Part shown: one piece after another, positions 12,562 to 64,000 of the stretch
Numbering within the stretch: the first letter of the stretch is position 1
Layout: every line of letters starts with the position of its first letter
The notes under the pieces: generated by a model
The model's database searches: none
The model's input: the letters and a program-made list of their open reading frames with translations, nothing else
What the model was told of the DNA's origin: nothing
Translations under genes and position numbers: made by a program
Assembly: GCA_949358305.1 (NCBI GenBank)
Contig: OX442314.1
Span: 23,994,001-24,058,000 of the forward strand
Source of the DNA: Strigamia acuminata
Lineage: Eukaryota
DNA: 64,000 nt
Reading direction: 5' to 3'

Positions 12562-12563
<2 letters not shown>

Positions 12564-12611
<48 letters not shown>
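12564..12611 (-). repeat. 48-nt poly(A) tract on the element sense strand between pol and ORF3
   Basis: T48 run on the plus strand, starting 17 nt after the pol stop. Confidence 0.9.
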
Positions 12612-12615
<4 letters not shown>

Positions 12616-12627
12616 AATCAAAGAAAA

Positions 12628-15600: not shown

Positions 15601-18273
15601 GTCGCTCTCGAGGTAGAATGGCATCATCTCGAGGTATGCGCGAAAGCGTTTGACACCCCAAACCGCGGCCAAACATTCGATTTCAGTTACTTTATAGTTC
15701 TTTTCAGCGCTGTTTAATGCGCGAGAGGCAAATGCGATTGGAATTCTCACACCTTCATCATTAAGTTGCATTAAAGCAGCACCTAATCCAGAATAACTAG
15801 CATCGGTCTGCAATATAAATGGTTTTTTCCAACTGGGAAAACGTCTTTTCAGTGTTGGTATCGCAATCTGGTCTTTCAGATATTCGAATGCTAATTGCTG
15901 CGCATCTGTCCAAATCCAACTTGCGTCCTTTTTAAGCAATGGTCGGAAAACTTCGCTAATTTTGGAAAAATTTGCAATGAATGATTGGTAATAACCTACC
16001 ATGCCTTTAAATCGTTGTAATTCGCGCAAACTGGTTGGCGCGGGATAATTTTGAATAGCCACCACTTTCTTTGGATTTGGTGTAATCTGGCCAGATTCCA
16101 CGATGTGTCCCAAAACCTCGAGTCTTTTTTGACAAAGCTCAGTTTTGTTGGCGTTCATGGTGAATCCAGCGTTGAACAATTCCTCTAAAACGAGGCGCAA
16201 ATGTTGCACGTGTTCCTCGAAAGTTCGGCTAAAAATAATCACGTCATCAATATACACAAATACAAATTTGTAAAGATATTTCGCAAGAGTCTTATTCATC
16301 GCTCGTTGGAGGGTAGCGGGTCCGTTGATAGGTCCGAAAGGCATGCGCACATATTCGAATAAACCTCGATGTGTTATAAAAGCTAAATACCGTTCGTCAC
16401 CTTTGCGCACGCCGATCTGATGGAAAGCTTCGCGTCCGTCGATTATCGAAAACCAATGCGCACCTCCCAAATATGCAAAGATGTTATCAATGTCCGGAAG
16501 GGGGTAAACGTCCGGAATTGTTTGCGCATTAATGGGGCGAAAATCCATAGCAGTTCTCCATTCGCCTGTCTTCTTGGGTACGACGACCGGAGCAACGGCG
16601 CAATCACTTTGGGATCGCCGAATAATACCTTGCTGCAGCTTTTTGTCGATATATTTATCAATTATCGCCTTTTTCGCAGGGTTTACCGGGCGCACAGGGA
16701 CATGAATTGGACGAAAATCCGGTTTCAGGTTCACCTCGTACTCGGTGTTATTACATAAACCAATTTCTTCGCGAAAGATTTGCGAAACGGGCTGCAATGT
16801 TTTAATTAATAGTTTTATCTGCGACACTGTTAATTGGTTCCACAACTGGTGGTAAATCCAATCTAAATCGGTCGGATCTCCACTAGGTTGGTACTGCAAA
16901 AAATTAATGTCATTAATGTTCTTTTTAGAGTTATTCCCACCATTGTCAGGTTGCGCAATCGAAAAGATGTTGATTTTCGACTCCTTCTTGGCATTGATGT
17001 CTTTAGCACGTTGCGCAACGAGTTGTTTGGCAATTGGACGAATAACATTGATTTTTCGTCGTAAACGTCGTAAGCGTCGAAACTGACTCAAAGTTAATTT
17101 ACGTGAAATTGTCTTTTTTAAATTGGAGGAAATTTTAGAAGTTTCTTTCCTCTTTGGGGACCAAATATTCGACCATTTGCGTTGCGCACGATGTCGAACT
17201 TGTTTAACTCGATACTGCGCATCGTCATGTGGATACTCGAATATTTCTTGTTGCAAGGGTCTATGCGCCAGGAGGAGGCAGTTAATTTCACTCACCGGAT
17301 CCGGTTTCCTTAGTATTTTCGTCGGAACGATCTCACTAATGGCCGCCGGTGGGTTGGATGGATCCTGCGTTTCTTCTGGCGCAAACGGCAAAATCAGAAT
17401 TGACTCTGACTTTTTTGCTTCTTCATAAGTCATGAATTTGCGAATCTCATTTGAGCCCACCATGCTCCACTGCTGTCTCGCATGGTCGATGTCGATTCCG
17501 GCCGCTGTGCAGAAATCACGTCCAAGGAGCATATCCATTTTGGCATCGGGTAAAACCATGCAAATGAATTTTATTATGCCGATTGGGGCGCGCAAAGCGA
17601 GCTGCATCGACTTGGTGGAATCTACTATGTCACCAGACGCGACCTGCACCCGCTCATGGAGATTCACGAAGTCTAAACCCATTTTTTCGTGTAGTTGTTG
17701 AAACACGTCTTCACTCATTACACACGTTTGTGCGCCTGAGTCCAGAAGCGCAGTACAAGCTACATTAGCCCAGGAAATCTTTACGCAAGGTGCTTTTTTG
17801 CACAAACGATCCCCGCGCGTTATCTCAATGATGGGTTCTTGAGTTTCTTTAAGTTCCTCTGGCGTTAACATTACGAAAGATACCTTCATAGGAGAGATCA
17901 CTTCCTTTGGAGCCTCAGTCGTTGTTGCACTGGAAGTAGACTTAATTATTGGTAAAGTTTTAGTAATTTTACTCACTATTGTCACTTTCGGGTTTTTCTT
18001 CGAAATTACAGGTTGCAAATCTGTTAATTTCGGCAATTCGTCCTTTACAGCTTCAGGAACGGCAGTCTGCAGATCTGACGCCTTTGTAGCTGATGTGATG
18101 ATGGAAGATGATGAAGAAATAACACTACTTACAGGTTTATACTCTGAAAGAGTAATAACAGTAGGAGATGTTGTTGAATTAACCTGTGAAGGATTGTCCT
18201 CTTTCAAGTTAATTAAAGGTGAAGCGCGTCGTTTGGATTTCAGACGTTTTGCGCGAAGGGCCGGTCGACTCAT
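12628..18273 (-). CDS. pol: Gypsy Pol polyprotein (aspartic protease, RT, RNase H, long low-complexity insert, integrase)
   Basis: ALLDSGA protease; RMPFG and YIDD RT motifs; LQTDAS...DHQSL...VADALSR RNase H; HYPPVVGH...CEAC zinc finger; SDNAP...GNIAER integrase core. Confidence 0.97.
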   Translation of the reverse strand: MSRPALRAKRLKSKRRASPLINLKEDNPSQVNSTTSPTVITLSEYKPVSSVISSSSSIITSATKASDLQTAVPEAVKDELPKLTDLQPVISKKNPKVTIVSKITKTLPIIKSTSSATTTEAPKEVISPMKVSFVMLTPEELKETQEPIIEITRGDRLCKKAPCVKISWANVACTALLDSGAQTCVMSEDVFQQLHEKMGLDFVNLHERVQVASGDIVDSTKSMQLALRAPIGIIKFICMVLPDAKMDMLLGRDFCTAAGIDIDHARQQWSMVGSNEIRKFMTYEEAKKSESILILPFAPEETQDPSNPPAAISEIVPTKILRKPDPVSEINCLLLAHRPLQQEIFEYPHDDAQYRVKQVRHRAQRKWSNIWSPKRKETSKISSNLKKTISRKLTLSQFRRLRRLRRKINVIRPIAKQLVAQRAKDINAKKESKINIFSIAQPDNGGNNSKKNINDINFLQYQPSGDPTDLDWIYHQLWNQLTVSQIKLLIKTLQPVSQIFREEIGLCNNTEYEVNLKPDFRPIHVPVRPVNPAKKAIIDKYIDKKLQQGIIRRSQSDCAVAPVVVPKKTGEWRTAMDFRPINAQTIPDVYPLPDIDNIFAYLGGAHWFSIIDGREAFHQIGVRKGDERYLAFITHRGLFEYVRMPFGPINGPATLQRAMNKTLAKYLYKFVFVYIDDVIIFSRTFEEHVQHLRLVLEELFNAGFTMNANKTELCQKRLEVLGHIVESGQITPNPKKVVAIQNYPAPTSLRELQRFKGMVGYYQSFIANFSKISEVFRPLLKKDASWIWTDAQQLAFEYLKDQIAIPTLKRRFPSWKKPFILQTDASYSGLGAALMQLNDEGVRIPIAFASRALNSAEKNYKVTEIECLAAVWGVKRFRAYLEMMPFYLESDHQSLKWLFQQREPTGRLARWVLSLSDYKFTFLHCSGCKNKVADALSRAPVDPPEVDDEDDSPEVDEACYLAYFDDCNEWPALNIIKELPKDINLQFRKLFKSKFKKVPLIAASSPTKKKNKKKSLIPRPTGTRKVIGNAPTSGAQIPSSAGVAAPPTRAPPVTIPPAAPAPVVQPTATPNASVPVAQPTSQVKTPNSSPVRVSVPLRTRRQRSLIPILIKKRGRPRKINIVPILSPRAKRAIATRTRARLKDPSLIPKTPPWLPPRYAGTIKKWTFPKLLKSQQVGRLKAVRRKSAIPSHVVKPKPKSVLIPPPLPIPTPPATPISTPIPSSIPPSAIIPTRIPAPINPSSFRQKTASAPSQLPTPGTLVDKIRRNFRRITGVPAPIIQSDSHRRPIPKPSPEIPNLPTPSPTPSIPITDFPVISPRQPSEPVMYDDAAGPSGQQRPEGYTSDPDSDSTSSEDSFGPIRDMSPPTRSYYAPPTSARRTPSRLRPRRERTVIEDLRTEAEKQAELEHDPPIEHPPFELLPTAAEIIAAQRQDPWSRELIFYLTAQMLPLDPDEAAKIVADAQDFGMYKEMLCRFPPVHINEIRKRRQIYLPFELRERYFRAMHYPPVVGHMGQERTLHRIKSRVFWPKMREDIRIWIQVCEACQRAKPLNRLPYGKMIMSRSRHLFSAIYIDYYGKKPRSTEGHCYAFVMVDSASRWLDVRLTENSNIATTVKQIQKFCKRWGFPKIIISDNAPAFRSPEFRSQIQQLGAINRYTAAYHPQGNIAERLNQSLKNCILAYIDDDHTRWDVNIGYFVLAINSAYQISLKYSPFKMVTGQEARFPGDLDSDTDDGEPLPPVEAENLHEHMRRMRESAINNLRESQIRHKKWFDLKRRPHDFRPGDWVTLRNRQPSSADKQFAAGLRQRTEGVYIIHRLVGPNTVILMDENGQKTQPYNVVELRHWFFAEANFLTLKDVEIIDKHVEVFAVNTLDIFSAYFLSFK

Positions 18274-20240
18274 TTGCGGCCTGGTTCCACCGGCTTCCCG
18301 AACTTCAGGCCTTCGGAGTTTTCCGGTCTCCTAAATGGCTGGTAACATATAGGGCACAACGGATGCCAAGTTGCTGAATCGACCAAATACCACCAATCCT
18401 TCGGTGTTTTCCTCCAGGCTGTACCTTTCTCAGGATTTTTGACAGTTAATGGTGGTTTTGGCGCTGGTGGAAATGTAACAATTGATGTAGAGCACACATG
18501 GTCCTTTGGGACGTCCGCTGGAGGCGTCAGAGTAGCTAAATTTATTTTAATTGTTGCCTTCTGAGCCGCCTCGGCGACTGTGCTCTTCTTAATTTCAGGT
18601 TCAGCATCCGTGTCACTACTGCTGCTACTCGAGTCAGGTTCCTGCGCAGATGGAGATTGTTCTGGTCTCGCCTGCACTGCAGCTAACTCGATTAAGAATT
18701 GTTTTCGATACCTCGCAAAACGCTTGACGTCCTGGGACACGAGAGATTTGACATCATCGTCTCCTTTGGACTTCTCCGCAGCCTTGAGCACTGTGGGGCG
18801 TTGCGCATCACGCAGAGAGGGCATTCGTTGATCAGCCATACCCAGATCTTTGTATTCGTCTGCTCGAATGGTGTCCAGCTGTAGACGATTGTCGATGTCG
18901 TTACCTCTTTGGATCGCCTCGTCCAGCGAGTTTACGTTCCATGCGCGTAAGAGATGAACAACCTCGGTTTGCATCATGTTCTGAGCTTTCTCCCATTGGA
19001 GCTCTGGGTCGGTATATCCTGCAACTTGAAGATAATACACAATCTCACTTAAAAATGACATTGTAGATTCTCCATTTCGTTGCTTTCGCTTGGATAGCTT
19101 CACATTGGCCGCTGCCGAATTCATGGCGAAAGCTCGTCGAAATAATATCTCAAAGTCCTCCCATGTTTTTGGTTTTGGTTTTAGTGATAACCACCATCGC
19201 TGCGCTCTTCCACGCGTTGCTTGAATGACAAATACTTTTAAATATTCATCCACCGGGGCCTGCATAGAATACATGTGCGCGTACAAATGCGCAAGAAAAA
19301 GATTAATGTAATCAAGATCGGCTTTATCTGGATCAAACAAAGGTGGTTTTCCAGGCTTGAAACAATTTTTATCTTTACTTGTATGTTGCGCTCTTACTGA
19401 CGGCAGTGACAACTTTGCCTTGGTGTCGGATCTGTCCCGAGGATATCCCATCTTGGAGTATAGCATCGAGCTCATTAAATCTCGATTTGCTCGTGTTGAA
19501 TGGTCCAAATGAGCAGATTCCTGCGATGGAGCCTGGGTGTAGATCGTTGCCATCGCCGGCATTGGCGGCGTGGTTGTTGTGTAAACAATTTGCGCAGCCC
19601 GCGCGGATGTTCTCGTCTGCTGGCCTCGATGTTCAACTTCCCGATGCTGGTGCAGACGTGCTGTGAGAAGTCCTAAATCATATGGTGCCGAGGTGCCTTT
19701 AACTCTTATGGAGCCATGCGAGGATCCACCGTCTAGAGACCGTGCGGTCCCTGTTCGTAGAGAGCGAGGGCCTTGTTGGAATATTTCGCGAATCTCATTT
19801 ACTAGACCTCGTGTTTGAGCATAGTATTGGTTGCGCAAGTCGGACATCAGCAAACCTTCCGTATTTAATGTGACGGGGTCTACTAAAGCTCTAGGCTGAG
19901 TCGAATCGAAAAAAGATGGCGCCGCCAAAAAGTCAGCGGGTGTGGACGTGGCAAAATTTACTTGAGGTTGCGCTCGTGAATTTGCAACAGCCATTGTCGT
20001 GATATGATTTGATGGGGCTGGCTGTTGTTGCGCAATACTCACAAGCGTTTCCTGTTGTTCAATACGACTTCTTCGTAATTGGTCGTGTTGCTGCCACTCT
20101 CGAAATTCCCTTTCTTCTTCCCGGCGAACACCACTCCTCCGTTCGGACTGTTGCCATTCCTGCTCCATTTCTAGCTCACTGAAATCAAATGGATCGCGCG
20201 TGACGGGACGAATTCCGTCACCTCCCAACTGTCTCGACAT
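18270..20240 (-). CDS. gag: Gypsy Gag (capsid-like) protein, 656 aa
   Basis: First ORF after the PBS; retrotransposon-gag-like GRAQRWW...TWEDFEILFRRAF...RKQRNGES; overlaps pol in the -1 frame. Confidence 0.92.
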   Translation of the reverse strand: MSRQLGGDGIRPVTRDPFDFSELEMEQEWQQSERRSGVRREEEREFREWQQHDQLRRSRIEQQETLVSIAQQQPAPSNHITTMAVANSRAQPQVNFATSTPADFLAAPSFFDSTQPRALVDPVTLNTEGLLMSDLRNQYYAQTRGLVNEIREIFQQGPRSLRTGTARSLDGGSSHGSIRVKGTSAPYDLGLLTARLHQHREVEHRGQQTRTSARAAQIVYTTTTPPMPAMATIYTQAPSQESAHLDHSTRANRDLMSSMLYSKMGYPRDRSDTKAKLSLPSVRAQHTSKDKNCFKPGKPPLFDPDKADLDYINLFLAHLYAHMYSMQAPVDEYLKVFVIQATRGRAQRWWLSLKPKPKTWEDFEILFRRAFAMNSAAANVKLSKRKQRNGESTMSFLSEIVYYLQVAGYTDPELQWEKAQNMMQTEVVHLLRAWNVNSLDEAIQRGNDIDNRLQLDTIRADEYKDLGMADQRMPSLRDAQRPTVLKAAEKSKGDDDVKSLVSQDVKRFARYRKQFLIELAAVQARPEQSPSAQEPDSSSSSSDTDAEPEIKKSTVAEAAQKATIKINLATLTPPADVPKDHVCSTSIVTFPPAPKPPLTVKNPEKGTAWRKTPKDWWYLVDSATWHPLCPICYQPFRRPENSEGLKFGKPVEPGRK

Positions 20241-20319
20241 GATGAAGAAAATGTGAAATGATTAAATAAATAACTCAAAAAACTAACCTTTTCGCGCGTT
20301 TAAGCCTTATAGGTGAGAG

Positions 20320-42700: not shown

Positions 42701-43214
42701 CTGCAAAACAAAACAAAAATAAAAATCAAATAGGTGACAAAAATCGATGCAAATGTGCCTCTATCATCACACACCTGAAAAAATAGCAAAGATAAAACCA
42801 GAGAAAAGAAAAGAATTGGATTCAGCAGAGTGAATCGAAACCCCATAGAAAAATCCCATATTTTATTGTCTAATGCTTCCCTGCGTTACACGTTTTGACG
42901 CCTTTTACAGATATAAATGCTTGGATTTGAAGCACCCCACATCCCGTGTACTCAATTATTTAAAGTATTTTCTCTCCTTTGTGTTGTCTTAATTAAACAG
43001 GTGTGAAAAAAAAAAATACCAGCAACAAAGGATTGCAAGCTGCAAGCTGTAAATGGCAAATAACTGTGTGTGGTGTGCTGCATTTCAATCTAAAACACAT
43101 GTAATTATAATCCTCAAACAAATTGTGGTTTCAGCATTCAATTTCATCATCAGAAAAGAAAAACATGTTTTTCTCACATAAAATTCATCAATATTTATGT
43201 TTTTTATCGATATA

Positions 43215-43979
43215 CAGGGTGTCCTAAAAGTCTGTACCCCTCCAAATATTTCCTGAGCAATTGCATCTAGGCCAACTTTGATGAAGCAATCGTATAGGAA
43301 GTTGGGTGAGAGCAAACCAATGACGTCATCTAATTTCACCTTGAAGGCCATTTTCAAGGTTATTCACTTGCTAACTTCTAAACCAATCAGGTTAGAGCAA
43401 AAAAGTCAATTACAAAGTTGTAGAGCACCATCAAATTAGTACTATCCAATTGATGTTAGTCATCTTAAGTGAAATGTTTTCTTTTTAAAAAGGATACAAA
43501 TCAGCTGAAATAAAGCCAGCCATTGTGACAAAACTTAAATTGCTATTAGAAAAATACTGAAATATTTAAATAAACGTATTCAAATGTGCATCATTATGCA
43601 AGTAAACAAGAAAAACCACTGCCTTTTTTTAATGCCTCAATAATTATTTTATCACAAGAATAAAAAATTTTACTTTGCGGATTTTTTTTCTGATTTGTCT
43701 CCTTTTTAAAAAGAAAACATTTAACTTAAGATGACTAACATCAATTGGATAGTACTAATTTGATGGTGCTCTACAACTTTGTAATTGACTTTTTTGCTCT
43801 AACCTGATTGGTTTAGAAGTTAGCAAGTGAATGACCTTGAAAATAACCTTCAAGGTCAAATTTGATGACGTCATTGGATTGCTCTCACCCAACTTCCTAT
43901 ACAATCGCTTCATCAAAATTGGCCTAGATGCAATTGCTCAGGAAATATTTGGAGGGGTACAGACTTTTAGGACACCCTG
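43215..43979. mobile_element. Tc1/mariner-type MITE with roughly 280-bp TIRs
   Basis: TA-flanked CAGGGTGTCCTAAAAG... / ...CTTTTAGGACACCCTG; long near-perfect inverted arms; no ORF. Confidence 0.92.
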
Positions 43980-44637
43980 TATAAATCAAATATGACCAAG
44001 ATATGTTATTAGTTGTTCAAAATAGCGTGATTGACATAATCTCCTTATAAGTATCTAATTTGATTTGCCATCCGCCCCTAGATGTTAAGATACAATGTGT
44101 GTCGATCAAAGCATGTTGAACCCAGCTCATTATATTTCAACCGTTCTCCTCTCCAATTTTCTCAATTATGTACACACACGAGTGAATTGTTGATTTATTC
44201 TGAAGATTAATGGTTTTATTGATAAATGAGCTTGTGAGACAACAGGCATTTTTTATTCGAGTCGATGCAAGTTCCTGACATGCTTGAGGACCAGCATATG
44301 TTGAAATTAGCTGTGAAATATAGTGAATGCATATTGTGCAACCACCCGTCTCCAATTTCCGCCTGGTCTTCTAACATTTTGCTATTTATCATTTTTTTCA
44401 TTTTTAGCTTTTTTTCTCTCTCACGAATTTGCTTGCAGTGATTGAAAATTAATCCTACCTCGTCACCAAATTATTATGTTCTTGTAAGTATTGAATATGA
44501 GACGGGATGGCAAGGGATTGATTGAGATGCAGCATGGATTGAGTTTAGTATTACAATAAAAGAACTGACAGAATAGAACACCGGCGCTCCATTAACAGGA
44601 GCTAAATTTAGATGTTGAATTCAATCCATCTGGTCAA

Positions 44638-44873
44638 TTTAGACATTTGTTTTAGTCGTTTAGTTCAATTTAGAAATTTATTTTAAATTTAGACATTTAT
44701 TTTAGTCGTTTAGTTCAATTTAGACAGTTATTTTAGTCGTTTAGTTCAGTTTAGACATTTATTTTAGTCGTTTAGTTCAATTCAGACATTTATTTTAGTC
44801 GTTTAGTTCAATTCAGACATTTATTTTAGTCGTTTAGTTCAATTCAGACATTTATTTTAGTCGTTTAGTTCAA
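44638..44873. repeat. 31-bp minisatellite, about 7 copies
   Basis: Unit TTYAGACATTTATTTTAGTCGTTTAGTTCAA repeated head to tail without spacers. Confidence 0.9.
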
Positions 44874-47070
44874 ATTAAATAATTATTTTATTTTATTATA
44901 CAAAGTGGCGTTACGGTATATGTTACTGTACTTGTATAAGGGGTCACACAGAAAGTTTGTTATGATTCAAGATAAATACGATTGAGTTTAATACAATGAA
45001 ATGTGTGTCCTCACAGTTACACATTGAGCAGATGAGTGGGGAACACAGGAAGTGAGCACTCCATATATGGTATGAGTGTCACCACAGGATACACAAGCAA
45101 AAAACTACACAAGCTACACTATTAATGACATCAAGTGGTGATTTTCCACATTAAACTTCCCAACAAAGTTGACTACTAATGCGATATAATAATATTTACA
45201 AAATACAAATTGGGCATCACTGCAGTATTTATTACCATTTCTTTATGGTTAGTACTTTTTGAACATGTTCCATTCAATTCAAAATGGGACTTCTTTTATT
45301 ACTTACTATTTGCTAACATCTTAGGATATTATTACAGGCCAATTTCACCATGGAATATAATCTAATGGACAGAAAGAGAGCCCAATGCTGTTGCCACTGT
45401 CCATTTATGACAATTACCCGTAATCTTCAGCAGGCTGCTCAAGAGTGTAATCAAAAACCACAAACATATCACACTGCAATAATGCAATCCTGCTTTATTC
45501 AATGTTCATTGTGTTCCTAACAAGGCCTTACCATCTGGGCATAAAATTAGTAATTGCATCTGCATTCAAAAGTTGTCTTTTGTACATGTGTGATTTTGTT
45601 TTGTCATGCCACTTCCGCCAGGTTCCATCTTTTTCTAAGCATAAAATTAGCACATTGTGTAATAACTCCGTACAAGAGATCTAGATGATCTTATACTTGT
45701 TTCTTTCACCTTCAAATTTTTTTGTTTCTCCCGGTAATGAAAACATTCTTGAATGTATCACAAGAATGTTTTCATCAGGGAACACACAATGATATCTGAT
45801 TCCTCAGGTCTGAATCCGAGTCCACCAGGTCTAATCTTATATTGGATGTGGATTCAAGCCGTTGCAAACAGAATACGCCTTTGATAAGCTATTGTAAAAC
45901 CAACCCTTTGATCATTTGTACCAATACCGAACTGGAGTTGAACTTTCGTAATCCGTTCCCTTATAAATTTCGGTTTACTGTTTTTATATATAACCGGGAC
46001 ATATAGTAAACAGTCGTATGGTTTGTCATAGAGAAAAGACAAGACAGGGAGAGCAATAGTGCATATTGGACCATCAACGCGGTTGCAGAGGTCGTATAAA
46101 GCAACTGATAGAGGTTAAACAAATAAACACGAAAGGGATAAAATAAAGCGAGGAAAAAAGGTGCAAAGGCTTTAAAGGCGTGAAATTAGAAAAGCGCTCA
46201 CTCACTCAGCTTTTAAATTAATTATTTTCGCACTCTAAAAACCAAAGCTAGAAAAATCATAAAAAGGAACAAATAGGCCTATTTAGCGCGAAGTGTGTGG
46301 ACTTTTTTTTCTCGAAGTTATGTTACAATAAAAGAACGGGTGTCTTATACAGAATCGGCACGAAATGTGGATATTTAAAAAAAGTAGGAAATCATTTTTA
46401 TTGTTTTTTTGAATTTACGAGGAACCGCAAAATGTTGATGACAAGACACAATTGTCTCGTAATATTACATCGGATAAAATTTATTTTAATATTTATAATT
46501 CAATTTTATTTCGATGGCGAAGTTGAATTTTATTTTTTGATGAAGCGCAGGAAAGCTCCAGAGAACAAAAGATAAACAAATCCTTGAACAATGTTCTCGA
46601 AAAAAATCCACATTTCCCGACTGCAATCACACAGACAAAACAAGCAGAACAATCGCCGACGTTAGGACAGAAATAAAAATACCCGCAATTAGAACCGATT
46701 AACTAAAGCTGCTTATTCTGTAAATGCCGAGCAAATGTATTTTTTAAAAAAAAAAAACATTTAAAATGTAAAATTCAACGGTTTGTGACCAAGATCATGT
46801 TTCTTTTATTATTGAGCAACTTCGTGCGTCAACTCCAGTCTCAAATTCCAGCTAAAGCCAGCTATGCAGCAGCAGCAGCATGCACGAATAAATTATGCAG
46901 AGAGGAAAACATCCACACTTGTATTGACTTTTAAGCTAAACATGCTTAAAAACGAGTTGTCAGACCCGCAAAACATCACCCACATTCAACTCACTTTCTT
47001 ATCTCCCAACCTTAAGCTTACACGACCCCAAATAAAAATAAAAATAAAAATAAAAACCGCCTGAATAATG

Positions 47071-47218
47071 AATTATATTACAGCTTAGGCAATAAATGTT
47101 GTTTAACTATAGGCTTGTCCAATTAATTAAATATTTACTAGTACTTAAAAGAAAAACCAGGTGGAGGGCTTGACCTCTACTTATGGTCTAGCCCGAGACC
47201 TGACCCCCAGTCCAATTT
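47071..47218 (+). repeat. DIRS left inverted terminal repeat
   Basis: 47087-47218 is the reverse complement of 52095-52226 (132 bp); the start of the ITR is complementary to the ICR. Confidence 0.95.
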
Positions 47219-47316
47219 TACTAGCCAAGTTCTCCTCACGTGATTTTTCGCGTTCAGAAAATTTTGGCTATTTTTTAGTTTTATATCGCTTTTTTGCACT
47301 TTGACTACCTTTTACG

Positions 47317-48903
47317 ATGAGCCCTACTAAAGTTAGAGGTAAGAAGACAGCAGATGACTCTTTAAGCTCCAAAAAAGCACGACCACCGCGTGGTCGCACC
47401 AACACCACTAAGCCTATCACCACCACCACGCGTGTTGAAACTCACCACGAGCCCATCGCGCCGCCTTCCTCGTCCCAATCGAGGATCCTATTAGATGGTT
47501 CCATCGTTCCCACACCATCAGATGAAACGATAGAACGCCTTGACGAATCTTTTGGAAACAATGATGTACGGGATCCGAGAGGGCCCGACTTTACCGCCTC
47601 GCAAGTCGCGAATAGTCAGGCGCCCGACTTGGGACTTTCTTCCCAGGCCATCGAGAAGCTCATCTTTATGGCTTTCTCGCAGAATCAGACAGGTGGGGCC
47701 CCTCTTCAGCGGGAGGGGTCTACCGAATTGCCAAAAATGTCTCGATCTCGTAGAGACGAGTGGGGCACATTTCAGTCTGAAAATCAAGTAAGTAATTCTC
47801 ATACGGAATTGTAGATAAATTCTCACTCTTGTTACTGACTGGTTGTAGTCAGATGTTTCAGAGTATGATTCCGACCGTTCGTCACGCTCTAGCTCGTCAG
47901 ACGATGAGCGAGAATTTTCCGCAAGACTGTCTCGTAAGGACCGTGAAATTATACGTCTCCGACGAGAACTCGAGAAGAGAGACAAACCGCACGCCAAATC
48001 GCGAAAATCGCCGTCTCGAAAGGACGAGGAATCCGACCGATCGTCGGACGACTCCGATGATCTCGAAGAAGATGCGCCTTTTCTCCACGAATCGTCCGCC
48101 AAGGAAATAGTTCGAATTTTGAGCAAACCAGTTTCGACGGCCAAAAATAACAGTTTTAAGGCCGATTTTCCGTGCCCGACTCGACAGGTTCCCTTTTTGA
48201 AAAAGAAGAAAATGGACGAAGATGTGGAGGCCTATGTGGGGGCACGAAACACGTCCTTTTCCATTCCGCGAGAACGTTTTTTGCGTCGCTTAAACGGCAT
48301 GATGGCGCGCGTTGGGTCGATTACGGCAAGAATCTACGATCGTTCGTCAACAAACGACCCCATGAACAAAGACGAATTGCTTTACGCCAACAAAGCCATT
48401 TTTCAACAAGTTCGAAATGCTATGAACGCAATTAGCGACGAACGACGTTTCAATGTCGTTCAAGGTTTGGGTACGAAGAAGTCCGACATGGTGAAGCATT
48501 TTCGAAATTCGGAGGGAGACACTCTTTTTCAAGGGCAATTTTTTGAGAGATTCAGTAACCCATATTTTCGATACAAAAAATTTAAGAGTCTTACAACTTA
48601 TTGTTTTTCCTTGCAGAAAAGCAAGCCGACCAATTCGCATCAGTGGACAGAGCGAGAAGTAAAAATCCCGCGAAGGGTCCTCGTCGCGATAATCGATTCC
48701 GCCGTGGTTTTAGTCGCCCCGTCGAGAGTTTTCAGCGCAGGGATTATTCCCACACACGACCGGACGACAGAGATCAGAGTAGAAGCTTTCGTAACCCGGA
48801 TTACAACAAAGGGCAGCAACAGCCCTTTCGTAAAAACCCCTTCCCCAGCAACCGGGGAAGGGGTCGTGGCGGCTTCACTAGAAACGGTAACGGCTTGGTG
48901 TAG
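47317..48903 (+). CDS. gag: DIRS Gag-like ORF1, predicted spliced: join(47317..47787,47849..48554,48617..48903), 487 aa
   Basis: Two GT-AG introns of 61 and 62 nt join three ORF pieces in frame, giving NAISDERRFNVV...LFQGQFFERFKK and an RG-rich tail typical of DIRS Gag. Confidence 0.75.
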
Positions 48904-51010
48904 CCACTTTTCCTTTCCTGACGCCTGTCTTTCATCTGGACGTTTACCCCTTTGTCACGACACTTGGTCCTTTATCACCTCAGATTCTTGGGTTCTTGAT
49001 ACGGTCAGAGGGATAAAATTGGAATTTTTAAGTCCACCTATTCAATCAGAATTTCGTACACCAGTTTTCGATCAGATTAAACATGAACTAATCAGGGAGG
49101 AGGTTAAGGCCATGATCCTTAAAGGGGCCGCTTATTCGGTTCTTCCTTGCCAAGATCAAATAATTAGTTTTCTTTTTCTAGTTTCTAAAAAAGATGGCGG
49201 TTTTCGGCCTATTATTAATCTTAAACCCCTCAATTCCTTTTTGGTTTTCAACCATTTCAAAATGGAGAATATTCACACCGCCTTGTCTCTGGTGGAGAAA
49301 GACGCTTTTATGTTTAAACTGGATCTATCTGATGCCTATTTTTCGGTGGCCATACACCCAGAATCTCGAAAATTTTTGAGATTTTTCTGGGAAGGTGTTC
49401 TGTATGAACTAGGAGTGCTTCCCTTTGGTTTAGGTCCCGCTCCCTTTTACTTTACAAAATTGTGTAGAGCTGTAGCAACTTTCCTTCGATCTCTTTACGT
49501 TCGGTTAGCAGTCTATTTAGACGATTGGTTTTTTATAAATAAATCTCACGAACTTCTTACACGACAGAGGGATTTTGTTTGCCTTCTTTTTCGCGCTCTG
49601 GGTTTTATCATTAATTTGAAAAAATCGATCCTTGAGCCCACTACTTCGATTACCTTTTTAGGCTTTCTAATTGATTCAGTTTCTATGAGCGTCTCCTTGC
49701 CACCAGACAGAGTTCAGAATATTCTTTCCTCCCTCGAAGACTTGCTTCAATCAGAAACCTGTTCTATACGAGAACTGTCTTCTATTATCGGCAAACTTAA
49801 CGCCACAACAATTGCCATTTCCTCTGCGCCCCTACATTATCGGGGACTGCAACATTTAAAAGCCCGTAATTTCACCGGAAATTATGAATCCACATGTTTT
49901 ATAACAGAAGAAGCTAGGTCAGAGCTTTTATGGTGGAAACAAAATTTGAGATTTTGCAAGGGCAGATCTCTTCTTCCTAAACCTTGTCTCTTATGCTTTG
50001 ATTCCGATGCCTCCCTAACAGGATGGGGGGCAACTTCTTCAGGCGTTAGTATAGGAGGCTCCTGGCCCTCTCCCCTTGTTAAGAAACATATCAATGTTCT
50101 TGAACTTTTAGCTGCTTTTTGGGGTCTCAAGTCTTTTGCTAAGGATTTATCCGATAGTATAGTTAAGATTAGAATGGACAATACTGCAGCGATTGCCTCC
50201 ATAAATCATCTGGGCAGCCCCAGATCCCGAGACCTTACTGCCGTAGCACAAGACCTTTGGTCTTGGGCTATGGAAAGGAATATCTCTGTTCAAGCGGAGC
50301 ACATCCCGGGTCGCCTCAATATAGAAGCGGACGCGGCCTCTAGGGGTAAGATCGTAGACTCAGGTGACTGGATGTTGAATCATAAGGTCTTTCACTCCAT
50401 TGATCAAATTTGGGGTCCCTTTTATTTAGACCTTTTCGCGGCAATGCATAATGCGCAATTAGAAAACTTCTTTAGCTGGAAGCCCGACCCTGCTGCTCAG
50501 GCCTTTGATGCCTTAGTTCAGGACTGGGGATCAGGAATTTCTTACGCTTTTCCTCCTTTTTGCCTCGTTCCAAAATGCCTTCAAAAAATCCGCAATGCTT
50601 CGACACCTACTCGAATAGTTCTGATCACCCCGATTTGGCCTAGCCAAGCTTGGTTTCCGGTAATTCCACATTCAGGAAATTTGTTCTTTTCTTTCTACTA
50701 AATCGAGATTTATTTTCAGCTTCTCTGGTCCCTATCGACGGAATCCCCGATACGGTTGCCCCAACTCCCGAATCTTTTGACGAATGCGCTGAAACAACCC
50801 CATCCGCTTCTCCTAGCGCGATCCCTGCAGCTGGCCGCATGGAAACTGTCATCGGTTCCCTCGGAAACGGAGGTCTTTCAACGAACGCTTCCAAATTGGT
50901 GGGGTGTTCCTGGCAGTCCTCGTCAAATAAGATCTACGACGGACACTGGAAGTCTTGGCTCCACTGGTCTACACGAAACAATGTTGACCCTGTTCGCCCA
51001 TCTGCCATAA
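48119..51010 (+). CDS. pol: DIRS Pol: reverse transcriptase, RNase H and Dam-like methyltransferase domain; 60-nt intron at 50660-50719; true start probably through Gag fusion
   Basis: GGFRPIINLK, DLSDAYF, LPFGL, YLDD; SDASLTGWG, HINVLEL, MDNTAA, ADAASR; DLFA...YAFPPF; after intron removal WPSQAWFP-LLWSL...HPLL...LAAWKLS. Confidence 0.9.
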
Positions 51011-51810
51011 AGTTGGCAAATTACCTTTCTTCTCTTTTTACTGATAATTTTGCGCTTAGCACAATAAATGCCCATCGTTCGGCTATTTCTCAGACCATCA
51101 GTTTAATTTCTTCAATTGATCTAGGTTCTCACCCACTTATCAGGCGCGTCATGAAAGGCATCGCCAATTCGCGTCCACAAATTCCGAAATATTCCTCCAT
51201 TTGGCATGTAGGCCCGGTTCTTCTCTTCCTTAAGTCACGGTTTCTTTTACTTCCTACCTTCTCCAAGTTAGAGATTAATCGTCATATCGCCACACTCTTG
51301 GCCCTTTCCTTAGCAGGAAGGGCTTCAGATCTCAAACTCTTATCATCCAAAGTAGTTTTTTCAGCTAACTCTTGTGTTTTTCCTCTCCTAGGAAAGAGAA
51401 AATCCTCCTCTACAGTCCCTTTCGTTCTACCCCGTTTCGAGGACAAGGAATTATGTCCGGTCGAGGCCATTAAATTTTATTTAAAACACTCAGCCGCTTT
51501 TCGCGGATCCTCTCTTCAATTCTTTTTGGCGTCCTCACGTCCTTTTGGACCGGTCACTTCTTCCACTATTGCCAGGTGGATCAAGGAAACCTTGTCCATG
51601 GCAGGAGTAAACACTGCTATTTTTTCGGCCCATTCTACCCGTGCAGCCGCCACTTCCTTTGCTTGGTCAAAAGGAGTTAATTTATCTCACATCCTTCGAG
51701 CGGCAGATTGGTCCTCTGCCTCGATATTTTTCAAATTTTATAATCATCCAGTCGAGAGAATTTCGACTGATTTTACTTCTACTGTTTTAGAGGCTACGAA
51801 GAGCCTATAG
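50839..51810 (+). CDS. DIRS tyrosine recombinase (frame open from 50644; first ATG at 50839)
   Basis: YR catalytic pattern GRASDL...HSTRAAATS...AADWSSASIFFKFY; N-terminal SAM-like YDGHWKSW region; overlaps the MT tail. Confidence 0.93.
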   Translation: METVIGSLGNGGLSTNASKLVGCSWQSSSNKIYDGHWKSWLHWSTRNNVDPVRPSAIKLANYLSSLFTDNFALSTINAHRSAISQTISLISSIDLGSHPLIRRVMKGIANSRPQIPKYSSIWHVGPVLLFLKSRFLLLPTFSKLEINRHIATLLALSLAGRASDLKLLSSKVVFSANSCVFPLLGKRKSSSTVPFVLPRFEDKELCPVEAIKFYLKHSAAFRGSSLQFFLASSRPFGPVTSSTIARWIKETLSMAGVNTAIFSAHSTRAAATSFAWSKGVNLSHILRAADWSSASIFFKFYNHPVERISTDFTSTVLEATKSL

Positions 51811-51907
51811 TTAAACAACATTTATTGCCTAAGCTGTAATATAATTGAATATTTTGCTAAGTTATGACGCAAAATATGAATTATATAAAGAGGCAATAAA
51901 TGTTGTT
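51802..51907 (+). repeat. DIRS internal complementary region (ICR)
   Basis: First part is the reverse complement of the left-ITR start; second part is the reverse complement of the right-ITR end; the two meet at AATT. Confidence 0.95.
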
Positions 51908-52094
51908 ATTTCCCACCCTCATTTTGATTTTATGTTTTTGGTTGATAGATATCTTGACCACCCTAACAACATTTGTTTATGGTTTTTTATTGTATTTTCA
52001 GATCGCCAATAAAGTCGATCCGTCACCTCTCCTTGATGTTTTCAGTAAATAAAGTTTTATTTCTGAAACTACTTGTTTTATTCCTCAGTTCCTT

Positions 52095-52274
52095 AAATTG
52101 GACTGGGGGTCAGGTCTCGGGCTAGACCATAAGTAGAGGTCAAGCCCTCCACCTGGTTTTTCTTTTAAGTACTAGTAAATATTTAATTAATTGGACAAGC
52201 CTATAGTTAAACAACATTTATTGCCTCTTTATATAATTCATATTTTGCGTCATAACTTAGCAAAATATTCAATT
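52095..52274 (+). repeat. DIRS right inverted terminal repeat with 3' extension (rE)
   Basis: Reverse complement of the left ITR plus an extension complementary to the ICR, ending AATT. Confidence 0.95.
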
Positions 52275-52498
52275 CCCCAGTTTAGTCAACTTTAAAAGTG
52301 CCTTTAATCCGAAAAGCGAACAACCAGCTATTAATACACTCATGCCCACATAAAATATTTAATTATTTGCATTTAAATCAAAATTTAAAAAAATAATATT
52401 AAAAAAAAACAATTTGAATAAAAAATAAAAACAAAAATAAAAATAAAAATCGATATTGTGCAATCATTGTAGACAAAGACAAAAAAAGATTGCCGTAC

Positions 52499-57200: not shown

Positions 57201-57547
57201 TGCCTCTCATATTACTAAAAATATTATAAATTTCACCAAACCGAACTTTTACTCAAAAAAAATATAAAAGACAATAACACTCCGTAATAATTAATTGAAA
57301 ATAAAAATAGTTAAAAACTGACCATTTCCATTCCTAAAATGAAATATTTAAGCAATGTTTATCATTTTTCTCCCAATAAAAAACTGAAGTAAAGACAGTA
57401 TTTGATATTCGTTTTATTTTTAAAAATACCGGTTTTTGATACTGGTAAATACCTGGTTGGGTCGGGCCACCGTACGGCCCGACCCATCCAGATTTCCTGA
57501 TACTGAATTTGTATCCAGTCCAGCCCTGCTCGGGATGGACTAATCGT

Positions 57548-58035
57548 CAGCCGTCAGCCCCCCATTTCCCAAAACCCCAAAAGCCTCCCAAACTCGGCTG
57601 CCGTCAGCCTTGAGTTGTCAGCAGGCCCCCCAAACTCGACAGCTTGGGAGGGCTGCCGAGTTTGAGGGGGCTGACGAATTTGAGGGGGCTGCCAAGTTTG
57701 AAGGGGGCTGCTGACAACCCAAGCCTGATGGCTGCCGAGTTTGGAAGGGCTGTCGAGTTTGGGGGGGCTGCCGAGTTTGGGGGGGCTGCCGAGTTTGGGG
57801 GGGCTGCCGAGTTTGGGCGGGCTGCCGAGTTTGGGGGGGCTGCCGAGTTTGGGGGGGCTGCCGAGTTTGGGGGGGCTGCCGAGTTTGGGGGGGGGCTGCC
57901 GAGTTTGGGGGGGCTGCCGAGTTTGGGGGGAAAGGCTGATGGCTGCCGAGTTTGGGGGCTGCTGACAACCCAAAGATGACGGCAGCCGAGTTTGGAAGGC
58001 TTTGGGAGTTTTGGGAAATGGGGGGCTGACGGCTG
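57548..58035. mobile_element. GC-rich inverted-repeat element enclosing an 18-bp minisatellite
   Basis: Roughly 57-bp imperfect TIRs (CAGCCGTCAGCCCCCCATTTCCCAAAAC... / ...GTTTTGGGAAATGGGGGGCTGACGGCTG); internal GGGGGGGCTGCCGAGTTT tandem array of about 10 copies. Confidence 0.7.
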
Positions 58036-58128
58036 CCGGTGCCGAGAGTAATTTGATGAATTTGATTAATTTTCAAATTTAACTGAGATTTAATCTCGAA
58101 ATATTACGTAAAAAACTAACGCCATGTA

Positions 58129-58487: not shown

Positions 58488-59443
58488 CAGGGCCGTCTTA
58501 ACACTTTTCAGCACCCTGGGCTTAAAAAAAAATCAGGCACCCCTTGCCTTTTACATTTACAATTTCACAGACCCGTTCCTAACGTATACTTGTAGTGCAC
58601 TCATATTTTTTAGGCATGCTACCATCTTCCCTCGAATATAACGTCATGAGGTTATATTCAAGTTTTTTCAAAAATCGCTGTTTTCGAAAGTTTTAGCGAT
58701 TTTTCGAATATAACGTCACTTCGAATATAACGTCATGACGTTGTATTCGAATACAACGGCATGACGTTATATTCGAGTTATATTTGAGAAGCGTTGCGGG
58801 GTGCGCTTTTTACAAGCGCGATGCCAGGAAGCATTGAATTGAAAATGAATTGAACCGAATCGGACACGAATTGGACACGAATTGAAAACGTACTGTATAT
58901 TTTGAACTTAAAATTTCAATTCAATTTTTTTTTTCAAAATTACGTTACCAATTACTGATTTTTCAGAAATTTTACAAAAAATTTCTGATTTTTCAGAAGT
59001 TTTACAACAAAATTTCTGGTTTTTTAGAAGTTTTACAACAAAATTGTGATTTTTCAGAAGTTGTACTAAAAAAACACAATACAACGTCATGACGTTATAT
59101 TCGAGAGAAGACGGTAGCGCCTCACTGCCACCCCCCTCCAAAAGAAGTACCGTACTGGTAAGCATTGATGTGAAATCACACCAAAAAATTCCTTTTCGAA
59201 CCTAAAAATGCATTTTCGAACCTAAAAATTCATTTTTAGAGAAAAAATGGCACCCAGGGTACGCCCCCTGACCTGTGGTGCCTATGTGTTTTACACATTA
59301 TCAACAATGTGTGGGACGGGGCCAACAAGTTCAGCTTATATTTGAACACTCATGAAGACTCTTTGTAGGAGGCGCCTGGCATTCGCCTCTGCCCGGCGTC
59401 CCTGCGCTGCAGCCCAGTTAGCCCAATGGTAAAGATGGGCCTG
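58488..59443. mobile_element. hAT-type MITE hosting a nested pogo-like MITE
   Basis: CAGGGCCGTCTT / AAGATGGGCCTG TIRs; 8-bp flanks ACTGGAGT and ACTGGGGT (7 of 8 match). Confidence 0.65.
58622..59114. mobile_element. Pogo/Tc2-like MITE related to 22513-22990
   Basis: TA-flanked CCATCTTCCCTCGAATATAAC / GTTATATTCGAGAGAAGACGG; repeated CGAATATAACGTCATGACGTTRTATTCG palindromes. Confidence 0.8.
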
Positions 59444-60779: not shown

Positions 60780-61016
60780 TTAAATGTGAATGACTTCCAG
60801 CGCCTGGAGAGAGGACAGAATGATGTAAATCAACCAAAGAACCAAACAAAAGAAACCGCACAGATATTTAGGTACGGTAGGACCGCCCAATTCAGCTTTG
60901 CCGAAATAGGACAATTTTCGACGTAGTAGTAGCACAACAATGCAGAGCGTTGACGCAATAGTATAACAGCCAACACTGAAGGACAAAGAACCAGCTTCGA
61001 CACGAAACTTTTCGTT
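60780..61016 (-). CDS. Calx: Na+/Ca2+ exchanger (SLC8/NCX) last coding exon
   Basis: NEKFRVEAGSLSFSV...LLRRK...AELGGP...LWLIYIILSSLQA, the NCX C-terminus; stop at 60780. Confidence 0.93.
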   Translation of the reverse strand, partial: NEKFRVEAGSLSFSVGCYTIASTLCIVVLLLRRKLSYFGKAELGGPTVPKYLCGFFCLVLWLIYIILSSLQALEVIHI

Positions 61017-61105
61017 CTGACAGAAAAGCAAACAAATTCAAACACATTTCAATTTCACATTAGACACAAATTTGTTTTTAAAAAAAAAAAAAATTAAATT
61101 TTTAC

Positions 61106-61284
61106 CTTTGTAAACCAGTAAATACTCGAAATCACCCATGGGAGGCCCAAGCCTAAGAATACGTTTACGGAGTTACTCCCGGTTACATTCCCAATTGCGC
61201 TATCAGCATATTTCTCTTGCCGAGCTGCTGCTTTACTTGCAAATAAATCGGGTAAACTCGTACCGGCAGCTACAAATGTAATAG
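61106..61284 (-). CDS. Calx: Na+/Ca2+ exchanger exon (alpha-2 repeat)
   Basis: [18 protein letters not shown]...[25 protein letters not shown]. Confidence 0.96.
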
Positions 61285-61375
61285 CTAAAAAAAAAAATAA
61301 AGAAATGAATGAATAAATGATTGCTAAACCAATAGTCCCTTGATTTGTAGTATCAAAATTTATAGTAGTCTAGAG

Positions 61376-61704
61376 CAGCGTTTCCCAAACGGTGAGGCCC
61401 TAGAATAGTGCACTTGTCTTGTCGTCTATAAGAGTCTATTCTATCTAGACAATACAAAACTGCCAAATTCAAATCCATTTCAGTTTGTGTGCTCAATTCT
61501 ATTATGGATAAATGGCTGATAAATAAGCCTTCATGCTCAAAAAATTATATGTAAAATTGTACAAAATTGTATGCAATATTATATAAAAATTTCTTTTTTC
61601 TTTTTAGTAGTTCATTTTTGAAAAATTTAATGCACCGATAGATGAAGTGGGGCGCGTTATTGCTTAAAAATGGGGCGCGATGCTAAAAAGTTTGGGAACC
61701 CCTG
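61376..61704. mobile_element. hAT (Charlie/Buster-type) MITE in an NCX intron
   Basis: Perfect 8-bp TSD GTCTAGAG (61368-61375 and 61705-61712); CAGCGTTTCCCAAAC / GTTTGGGAACCCCTG TIRs. Confidence 0.9.
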
Positions 61705-62063
61705 GTCTAGAGTTTTGGTAGGAAATAGTAAACTACGCAATTGTAAACAGAGTTTATCGGCATGCCAGTAATACTCGCACTATACCGGCATGCGGCAATA
61801 AGCGAGGTAATACGTTATGGTCTGAACTTATTCACAGCCCAAACACCTAGACATTCCAACTCTGAAGCGCTATAGTTAACCTCAGCACCTTGCAGAGTGC
61901 AACTAGCTTTGACTACGATTGCGTATTTCCTTTGGACGCAATGGCTAATCCGTTTATCTGTACCAGTTTCTATGCAACCGCAATACTACTGAAAACATTG
62001 TTTTCATCCAAACTTTTGACGGAGAGATTTTATTTGAGTGGGTGCTTGTATTGGATGCTGTAC

Positions 62064-62214
62064 CTGTAATGCTATCTGGCAGACCAACTAATTTTCCAAA
62101 ATGACTGGCTAAGTCTCCAATAATTGCAGTTAATAAACCTATCATTCCCAATGAAAAAACGAAGCACAGCCAACCACCTAGCAATGACGGAGGAGGAACC
62201 AGAGCAAACAGCAC
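62064..62214 (-). CDS. Calx: Na+/Ca2+ exchanger exon (TM segments)
   Basis: VLFALVPPPSLLGGWLCFVFSLGMIGLLTAIIGDLASHFGKLVGLPDSIT. Confidence 0.95.
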
Positions 62215-62276
62215 CTATAAAACAAAAATAAAAACATGTCAAACATTATTTTATTTAAATCAATAACTATTTATAC

Positions 62277-62455
62277 CTTCCAGCCAAAAGTAAGCAGATG
62301 AAGGACATAGTCTGTCCAAGAAGCATTTTCCAAGTCGCCACCATTGGGTACCATTGCAGATTTAAATTGCTGGGCCCAAGTCTCGCTTTCGACTCGAATA
62401 AGGTCCATGTTTGCGTTTGTCATCATCATCATTTTGTTCATGACTGAATTAAAAG
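62277..62455 (-). CDS. Calx: Na+/Ca2+ exchanger exon
   Basis: ...ESETWAQQFKSAM...DYVLHLLTFGWK; AG and GT boundaries in phase. Confidence 0.93.
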
Positions 62456-62530
62456 CTATTTTAAGATAGAAAAAGAAAAAGATAATTTAGAAAACGAAAA
62501 GCAAAATTTCGATTTTTTTGTCTTTATTAC

Positions 62531-62675
62531 TGTCATCGTTGGTGATTGTAACAGTAATTCGATTAGTATTGCCTAACTGGGCTCCGCCTGTCGGCTCAAA
62601 TAATTCTATTTCAAAATGTTCATCTTTTTCTGGATCCATGTCATTGATGACTGGAATTTCAATATTCAGCTCCAA
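62531..62675 (-). CDS. Calx: Na+/Ca2+ exchanger exon (Calx-beta 2 C-terminus)
   Basis: LELNIEIPVINDMDPEKDEHFEIELFEPTGGAQLG...VTITNDD. Confidence 0.92.
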
Positions 62676-63194
62676 CTGATAAAAAATAATCATTTAATCA
62701 AGTATTAGACACTTATACGAGCACAAATCACTTCTTTAACGTGTAAAACAAGTCAATTTCACACACAAAACGCAAAAACGTCTAAAACTAATAAATTCGT
62801 GCCGGTTTTTAATTACTCGTTAACTATCAACTACAAAATCAGTACTGCATTCAAAAATTAAAATATTTTGTGTTTTACTTCAATTTTAAAGCAAAAATGA
62901 CATCATTTCCTATCCAACTTAAAATACTAAAATTGTATTTTTATTTTTGAATGCAGCTACTGAAAACGATTCGATGTGACACCCAAATCCATACGAATTT
63001 ACCAAGTTTTTTATCACGTTTTTATCTCAATCAATAATTTTTAAAGTACCACTTATGCTACGCTGATTATCGTGATAATTAACACTTTAACGGTTTAAAA
63101 CCCAACAGAGTCTAATAAATCAAACCCCATTCACAACACACTCAATTATCAACAACCAATGTAACACTCGTGTTAATACAATTGAATAAATCAC

Positions 63195-63388
63195 CTCTCC
63201 GTGTTTGAAAAGAAGTTCACCTTTACCGCCTTCAAAATCTTGGCCATTAATAGCAGACTTATCTATTGTCCTCCACTGAACTGACACATCACCATCAGCT
63301 CCATTTTTCCTAATCACAGGTATTAAAGCTACGCCGACACTTTCCTCAATTAGCAACCCTCTCTTCTTAAATTGTAATATTCCAGGCT
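63195..63388 (-). CDS. Calx: Na+/Ca2+ exchanger exon (Calx-beta 2 N-terminus)
   Basis: EPGILQF...EESVG...VIRKNGADGDVSVQWRTIDKSAINGQDF...LLFKHGE. Confidence 0.93.
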
Positions 63389-63446
63389 CTAAAACAAAAA
63401 TTTAAATCTTATTCATAAATAATTAATTGAAAACACTCTCAATTAC

Positions 63447-63682
63447 CATCATCATTCAATATAACAATCTCCATGATGCTCACACGACCCAAAACAACTT
63501 CCTCTTCCATTCCTGTTGGAACACTTATCCGTAGAAAAAATTCTTCATCCGGCTCCCATGCATTGTCATCAATAATTTCTACTTCAACTTCTTTTTCCAC
63601 TTCATTGGGTTCGAATGCAACAATCTGATTAATAGGTACATAATCTTCTTCAGCTACTGCGGCTCCATCGATTGTCTCCACT
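63447..63682 (-). CDS. Calx: Na+/Ca2+ exchanger exon (Calx-beta 1); gene continues off the right edge
   Basis: VETIDGAAVAEEDY...FEPNEVEKEVEVEIIDDNAWEPDEEFFLRI...IVILNDD. Confidence 0.93.
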
Positions 63683-64000
63683 CTGTAATTAAATGCAGGT
63701 TTTAATTAACGACCGATTCCATTTTCGCATGTAAACGTCCTATCGCCTTCATTTTGTACTTCATCAACAAGGCGATAAAATAAACATGTTTTATAAGTTT
63801 TTAAAACAGCAAACTTATCTACAAAAACAGTTCATGTTTTGATTCACAGCATGAGCAAATATTGCCACAGAAATGCGGTTTAAACCAATAAACAAATCAC
63901 TTTCAGCCGAAAAAAACACAATTTAGTAAGCAGAAATATCCCATACCCCTGACAGCTGTTGGGCATTTTATCTTTACCAGTATACTTGAAATTGCTTAAT

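Follow-up and report, generated by a model that had tools for sequence, protein, structure and literature searches.

We analysed a window of 64,000 nucleotides (the whole stretch of DNA considered here) from Strigamia acuminata (assembly GCA_949358305.1, contig OX442314.1, positions 23,994,001 to 24,058,000, forward strand) and describe within it a complete DIRS1-like retrotransposon of a multi-copy family, whose gag and pol genes probably carry three true spliceosomal introns (I1, I2 and I3). The introns would be removed to produce Gag and Pol, and the unspliced full-length RNA would be the likely template for reverse transcription, with new copies keeping all three. Retrotransposons are expected to shed their introns whenever they are copied. 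If this reading is right, the retention of three coding introns by an animal DIRS family would mean that the class can sort unspliced RNA for copying, and the element would be a small and testable example of intron gain within a retroelement.

The element, its coding segments and its host intron are laid out as follows, in coordinates of the window:

47071–52274, plus strand: whole DIRS1-like element; ends set by complementarity to the internal region, with AATT at each end, one of the two copies probably being target sequence
47071–47218, plus strand: left terminus; 47087–47218 is the left arm of a 132-nt inverted repeat and 47071–47115 pairs with the left part of the internal complementary region (ICR)
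47317–47787, plus strand: exon 1, open reading frame of the ATG and 157 Gag codons
47788–47848, plus strand: putative intron 1 (I1), 61 nt, phase 0; 62 nt in the main form of two sequencing runs; the argument for it is one of start codons
47849–48554, plus strand: exon 2, Gag body; first in-frame ATG (48212) inside the conserved domain
48555–48616, plus strand: putative intron 2 (I2), 62 nt, phase 1; weak donor, strong acceptor
48617–48903, plus strand: Gag tail, Arg/Gly-rich; stop at 48903; overlapped by the open Pol frame
48617–50659, plus strand: Pol frame with linker, reverse transcriptase (RT), RNase H and most of a methyltransferase-like domain; conservation starts at about 48932, and ATG is absent before 49112
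48887–48892, plus strand: weak candidate for an additional donor close to the end of Gag, phase 1; matches the place of a strong donor in relatives
50660–50719, plus strand: putative intron 3 (I3), 60 nt, phase 0 in Pol; in-frame TAA; 61 nt in the main form
50720–51010, plus strand: last Pol exon, open reading frame of the methyltransferase-like domain tail
50839–51810, plus strand: tyrosine recombinase, 323 aa counted from the first ATG; the frame is open back to 50644
51802–51907, plus strand: ICR; its halves overlap at 51843–51846 (circular junction)
52095–52274, plus strand: right terminus; 52095–52226 is the right arm and 52210–52274 pairs with the right part of the ICR
42701–52498, minus strand: host intron 1 of the NMDA receptor 2 gene, 9,798 nt, containing the element in opposite orientation

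The preliminary description of this DNA had proposed I1, I2 and I3 as GT-AG introns similar in size to the shortest introns of the host, and their positions, their lengths of 61, 62 and 60 nt and their GT-AG ends were all confirmed. Host introns in the window include ones of 58, 62, 69, 87, 89, 109 and 113 nt, the shortest three of which are close to the segments in length. Each segment is also a local dip in G+C content (0.28–0.33, against 0.44–0.58 in the flanks), and in ends, host-like size and composition all three agree with spliceosomal (U2-type) introns. An introner-type origin is not indicated: pairwise scores among the segments are no better than those of shuffled sequences (p 0.32–0.72), and no second copy of any of them was found within the window. 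As proposed, removal of I1 and I2 leaves a stop-free Gag frame of 487 aa that runs from the ATG at 47317 into an Arg/Gly-rich tail, and removal of I3 drops the in-frame TAA and leaves the Pol frame open to 51010.

Evidence for I2 and I3 comes from a blind deletion scan, in which splice signals were ignored and candidate deletions were scored against intronless relatives. At I2, 3,040 deletions that link body and tail of Gag without a stop were compared; the best length was 62 nt, and the GT-AG deletion of I2 ranked 10th with 31.6 bits against a profile of 28 relatives' Gag proteins; nine other GT-AG candidates at this site reached at most 17.4 bits. Against the same profile, Gag scored 31.4 bits with I2 removed, 13.2 with I2 kept and 14.7 for the body alone. 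Among 2,130 candidates at I3 the best length was 60 nt, and the GT-AG deletion ranked third (183.4 bits, compared with 183.6 for the best candidate and 137.5 unspliced). The spacing of conserved residues agrees: the next conserved proline lies 10 residues past the motif preceding I3 in 89 of 105 homologous proteins and lies at the same distance here once I3 is removed, and the alignment to T1J8R7, a Strigamia protein, has a 20-residue gap exactly over I3.

The evidence for I1 is of another kind. Removal of I2 and I3 restores colinearity with intronless homologues; for I1, which lies within unconserved sequence where 91 GT-AG joins are formally possible, only the argument from the start codon applies. 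The first ATG of exon 2 (48212) falls at about profile position 65–85, and the Gag domain matches from position 23–40. Removal of I1 would be needed because Gag otherwise has no start codon ahead of its conserved domain. The I1 donor has the second-best donor score in the element.

These scores also bear on a quite improbable alternative, in which an intron or recent insert is present at I3 alone, and Gag and Pol are joined by reading through I2 and by ribosomal frameshifting. Read in the Gag-body frame, unspliced I2 is free of stops, and that frame continues unbroken into Pol (ORF 47849–50701); the I2 donor and the I1 acceptor are weak, and 4 of 25 relatives have a fused gag-pol (16 of the 21 unfused ones have an ATG ahead of the conserved pol start). 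Against this, a plain 2-nt frameshift joining the Gag body and tail scores 17.4 bits, well below the 62-nt removal; a diverged contig from sister copies carries 10 extra letters over 48374–48876, which push the read-through out of the Pol frame; and exon 1, read past its end, stops at codon 166, inside I1, with exon 2 offering no ATG before the conserved domain.

Apart from the relatives described below, Gag searches returned a single match, a remote relative (P0121, 31% identical); a Gag search among longer proteins gave no match, and an Atlas search gave only unnamed or weak clusters. P0121 ends 15 residues past a conserved motif near the I2 site, in a hydrophobic run, possibly at an intron at a nearby site.

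Sister copies were found in contigs of two sequencing runs (X1 and X2). These contigs look like DNA: one spans a host exon into its intron, and the records reach 29–37 kb. Contigs of the element have a depth of about 2,500 in X1 and 1,000 in X2, compared with 332 and 90 for the flanking host contig, which we take only as a sign of a repeated family and not as a copy number. The depth falls outside the element, and loose ends at its termini show other flanks. The family is multi-copy, and the three segments are present in sister copies: high-depth contigs span I1 and I2 and cover I3 whole, and in the main form of both runs I1 is 62 nt and I3 61 nt, with the stops still present. None of the eight joints listed in X1 and X2 removes an intron, in contigs that drop rare variants and could miss a rare intronless copy; two joints in X2 run through a diverged stretch covering part of I1 and do not match the ends of I1. 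The preliminary description would have been contradicted by siblings with these segments as ordinary coding sequence. No such siblings appeared among the contigs of the two runs, and the main form keeps all three segments.

Differences between copies were counted in 12 of 24 indel rows and 40 of 371 substitution rows. Five of the 12 indels fall in 183 intron bases and seven in the non-coding ends, and none falls in the 4,311 exon bases, although the exons hold 111 of the 141 runs of at least four equal bases. The diverged contig mentioned above has three listed insertions in I2, and another contig aligns only from 48604 onward. Within 48617–48903, three informative substitutions are silent in the Gag-tail frame and replacing in the Pol frame. 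Changes confined to Pol are 12 silent to 6 replacing, those confined to the recombinase 6 to 1, and coding changes in a single frame 21 to 8 overall.

It is extremely improbable that this is a decayed copy whose segments are chance insertions or frameshifts resembling introns. Being short, splice signals occur often in A+T-rich DNA, and the element contains 231 GT pairs; this explanation is contradicted by the main form of the family, which carries all three segments. All three breaks in the coding span are bounded by GT and AG, have the minimum size of host introns and are poor in G+C, and the span has no other break.

Related elements without these segments were drawn from the best 80 of 443 confirmed metagenome loci, 42 of which are non-redundant for Gag. 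None of the 80 loci has an intact intron-sized insert in pol, and no intron-sized insert in Gag is evident in the 42 non-redundant loci, 41 of which have a profile match. In all 56 loci non-redundant at the site equivalent to I3, the frame stays open for 30 codons past it. Because related loci lack them, the three introns are likely to be gains in this lineage. A 57-nt insert in locus L079 was considered as an intron and dropped, as it sits in stop-riddled sequence. Scanning metagenome contigs with a single protein, and viral contigs twice, gave no related locus, and a second DIRS copy at 59–63 kb of the window, hinted at by tblastx, was rejected for want of tblastn support. In five loci (L001, L003, L004, L006 and L035), a single uninterrupted frame of 1,313–1,367 codons holds both Gag and recombinase and overlaps the entire pol.

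By its domains and termini the element is a complete DIRS1-like retrotransposon. Pfam detects RVT_1 (1.7e-15) and Dam, a methyltransferase (2.8e-09), in the ORF at 47849–50701 and Phage_integrase (1.2e-06), a tyrosine recombinase, in the ORF at 50644–51810, which overlaps the 3′ end of pol; it finds no DDE integrase or protease family in the five element ORFs scanned. Pfam gives no RNase H match, and the RNase H motifs of Pol are visible in the alignment and by a motif script. The catalytic motifs of RT, RNase H and recombinase are present. The first ORF is Gag-like by its score of 29–31 bits against the profile of the 28 relatives' first ORFs, and has no Pfam match. The two arms of the inverted repeat (47087–47218 and 52095–52226) are complementary over all 132 nt, and the ICR is complementary to the left end over 45 nt and to the right end over 65 nt, the two overlapping in AATT. 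The earlier assignment to DIRS and the claim that the element is intact therefore both stand, given these domains, motifs and repeats. The termini are inverted, unlike the split direct repeats of Ngaro/PAT elements, and the sole long direct repeat within the element, between the ICR and the right end, is 29 nt. Outside AATT the flanks differ between the two ends, and no empty site was found among the contigs of the two runs. The NMDA receptor 2 exons show 90–100% protein identity to Strigamia maritima T1JBL9, which makes a centipede the likely host; the closest named relative of Pol is T1J8R7, at 59% identity. DIRS1-like elements (Piednoel et al. 2011, PMC3266345) share with this one Gag, the RT–RNase H–methyltransferase protein, the tyrosine recombinase, inverted termini, an ICR with its junction, ATT-type ends and a length of about 5.2 kb; the element described here differs from them in its three putative coding introns.

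Beyond the preliminary description, we find that Pol has no ATG to itself. Skipping exon 2 would place Pol in frame with exon 1. From the I2 acceptor to the conserved start of Pol, 105 codons are open and none is an ATG. The ATG at 47317 can reach every gene through the same sites, and all the routes that we name are in frame. Besides Gag, made by removing I1 and I2, joining exon 1 to the I2 acceptor and removing I3 would give a Pol of 934 aa, keeping I2 would give a Gag-Pol of 1,190 aa, and joins to the I3 acceptor would give a Gag-recombinase of 755 or 845 aa. We scored splice sites with a generic matrix built from textbook frequencies. Four of the six sites in the element lie inside the range of 13 host introns; the I2 donor and the I1 acceptor fall below it. 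Exon 2 is bordered by these two weakest sites, and skipping it joins two strong ones. For this reason exon skipping is modestly favoured as the source of Pol, and it is favoured over retention of I2 because skipping is blind to length changes in I2 and retention is not. Exon skipping together with removal of I3 is our foremost candidate for Pol, held with somewhat less than even confidence; it is also quite conceivable that Pol is reached by another route, and production as the 1,190-aa Gag-Pol with I2 kept is rather unlikely. The recombinase would come from its own ATG or from a long splice to the I3 acceptor. The top-scoring donor of the element lies at 47339, 22 nt past the Gag ATG, in phase 1 and in phase with the I3 acceptor (recombinase frame), and may be a chance occurrence among the GT pairs counted above.

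A strong donor near the end of gag is also present in relatives without introns. It lies at most 130 nt ahead of the conserved pol start in 17 of 42 relatives (among them L002, L017, L024, L028, L031, L037, L042, L053, L054 and L080), compared with 0–1 in eight other intervals and 2 on the opposite strand; a ninth interval, which overlaps the test interval, gave 13. The gag stop is defined in 26 relatives; in 15 of these, the top-scoring donor within 300 nt of it is at −15 to +45. This was not part of the preliminary description, and it hints that DIRS elements may splice routinely. In the element described here, the candidate donor at 48887 is the best between 48617 and 49300. No acceptor partner of the relatives' gag-end donor was found. 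Acceptor peaks occur in relatives near the methyltransferase tail (20 of 56 at −120 and 14 of 56 at +60), perhaps reflecting pyrimidine-rich codons, and the −120 peak is also seen on the other strand in 11 of 56. A conserved in-frame Gag-recombinase splice in relatives was unsupported, the top acceptors being inconsistently in phase.

How these observations might fit together is as follows. We infer that I1 and I2 are spliced out to give Gag, and that exon 2 would be skipped and I3 removed to give Pol. A separate pool of unspliced full-length RNA would serve as the template for reverse transcription, because all proteins but the recombinase would need splicing and the copies keep their introns. 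The introns would have been gained in this lineage and then tolerated, because DIRS elements, with a gag-end donor in place, would by then have been balancing spliced against unspliced RNA. For BARE, distinct RNA pools have been described for translation and for reverse transcription (PMC3735527), and in BARE and in Arabidopsis Ty1/Copia elements (PMC3735527, PMC5580714) a spliced RNA serves for Gag and a separate full-length RNA is packaged. In those elements one regulated splice shortens a single ORF, whereas in the present one splicing seems to be required for Gag as well as for Pol, by way of small introns of a host-like kind. Penelope-like elements (Craig et al. 2021, PMC8557442) also keep introns after retrotransposition, a trait called highly unusual among retroelements and tied there to this group; they have their own unrelated RT and a GIY-YIG nuclease, and the introns detailed there are in the 5′ leader.

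The preliminary description held that the element must replicate unspliced RNA. We word this more weakly, as a probable consequence with rivals. In one, which we consider improbable, the element has true introns but propagates as DNA, by recombinase-made circles or by duplication, with no RNA escaping splicing. The element does encode a tyrosine recombinase and a junction able to form a circle, and Cryptons move as DNA by means of such an enzyme (PMC3212892). Against this, the RT and RNase H motifs are intact and the changes in Pol lean silent, and the drop in depth outside the element and the other flanks at its loose ends argue against segmental duplication. In another, which we regard as highly improbable, the introns are real, the sense RNA is fully spliced, and the template is an antisense RNA from the right inverted repeat, in which these splice sites are absent. 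The ends are inverted copies, so a promoter carried by one end could also drive transcription inward from the opposite end, and the element is antisense within the host intron. In Dictyostelium, by contrast, new copies of DIRS-1 lose a marker intron readable in the sense direction, so sense RNA is the template there (PMC7192593).

The intron reading of the three segments is supported by the blind scans of I2 and I3, by the sister copies and by the relatives without inserts. Several observations weigh against it. The I2 donor scores −3.6, whereas the 13 host donors range from −1.5 to 5.7; the I1 acceptor scores −0.9, whereas the 13 host acceptors range from −0.3 to 10.1. The gag-end donor of the element is itself weak (1.1). 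I2 is stop-free in 16% of shuffles, and codon shuffling leaves the Pol frame open across the Gag tail in 35% of cases. That the routes are in frame is weak evidence, each having a one-in-three chance. T1J8R7 is a gene model, and its gap over I3 could itself be a spliced intron. Runs X1 and X2 come from one study, which may include the window's own source, and the comparison of copies rests on the 12 indel rows and 40 substitution rows counted above. The I3 contig has only 30 letters left of the donor, one below the bar of the tool, and I1 and I3 each differ from the main form by one base within a homopolymer, where the assembly of the window could be in error. Finally, an engineered intron in Dictyostelium DIRS-1 is normally lost on retrotransposition and is gone from selected new copies; in favour of the reading, unspliced cDNA was detected when the marker intron sat near the 5′ end (PMC7192593). 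That element (Malicki et al. 2020, PMC7192593) has the same architecture, and the text available describes no native coding intron for it.

A literature search found no report of native introns in a DIRS element in the main texts covered. The words intron and splic are absent from the available text of PMC3783388, PMC3266345 (main text) and PMC9210276; in that of PMC4157794 and PMC6681497, intron is absent and splic occurs only in other contexts; and the portions of PMC5718144, PMC13465315, PMC5890265, PMC12477816, PMC9341512 and PMC3212892 held nothing on point. The expression of the overlapping pol and recombinase genes of DIRS elements is likewise unaddressed in the parts of this literature examined, and the element, with the donors of the 17 relatives, provides exact candidate junctions. 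A wider possibility, which we put forward tentatively and think doubtful, is that DIRS retrotransposons as a group run an unnoticed, retrovirus-like splicing programme: the gag-end donor would be widespread even where introns are absent, this lineage would have gained three introns, exon skipping from one start codon would choose between Gag, Pol and recombinase, and only unspliced RNA would be packaged. Spliceosomal introns are reportedly present in the coding regions of fungal tyrosine-recombinase (DIRS-order) retrotransposons, in work by Goodwin and Poulter in 2004 and Poulter and Butler in 2015. Those elements are fungal and the one described here is from an animal, and the gap in the published record may be smaller than it seems.

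The window holds several other features. A large LTR-retrotransposon-like element at 9055–20261 on the minus strand, presumably Ty3/gypsy-like by its motifs, lies in intron 2 of the NMDA receptor gene; it has ORFs of 663, 1,900 and 943 codons, its pol contains a long insert rich in proline, and there is an additional ORF downstream. At 60780–64000, also on the minus strand, are the last exons of a host gene, which by its motifs we take to be a sodium-calcium exchanger; its introns of 58, 62, 87 and 89 nt served as host controls. An 18-nt tandem array at 57545–58038, framed by 85-nt inverted arms (91%), resembles a small foldback element, and a second inverted-repeat element lies at 58618–59118. 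A 31-nt tandem array at 44602–44930 lies within the same intron 1 of NMDA receptor 2 that holds the DIRS element.

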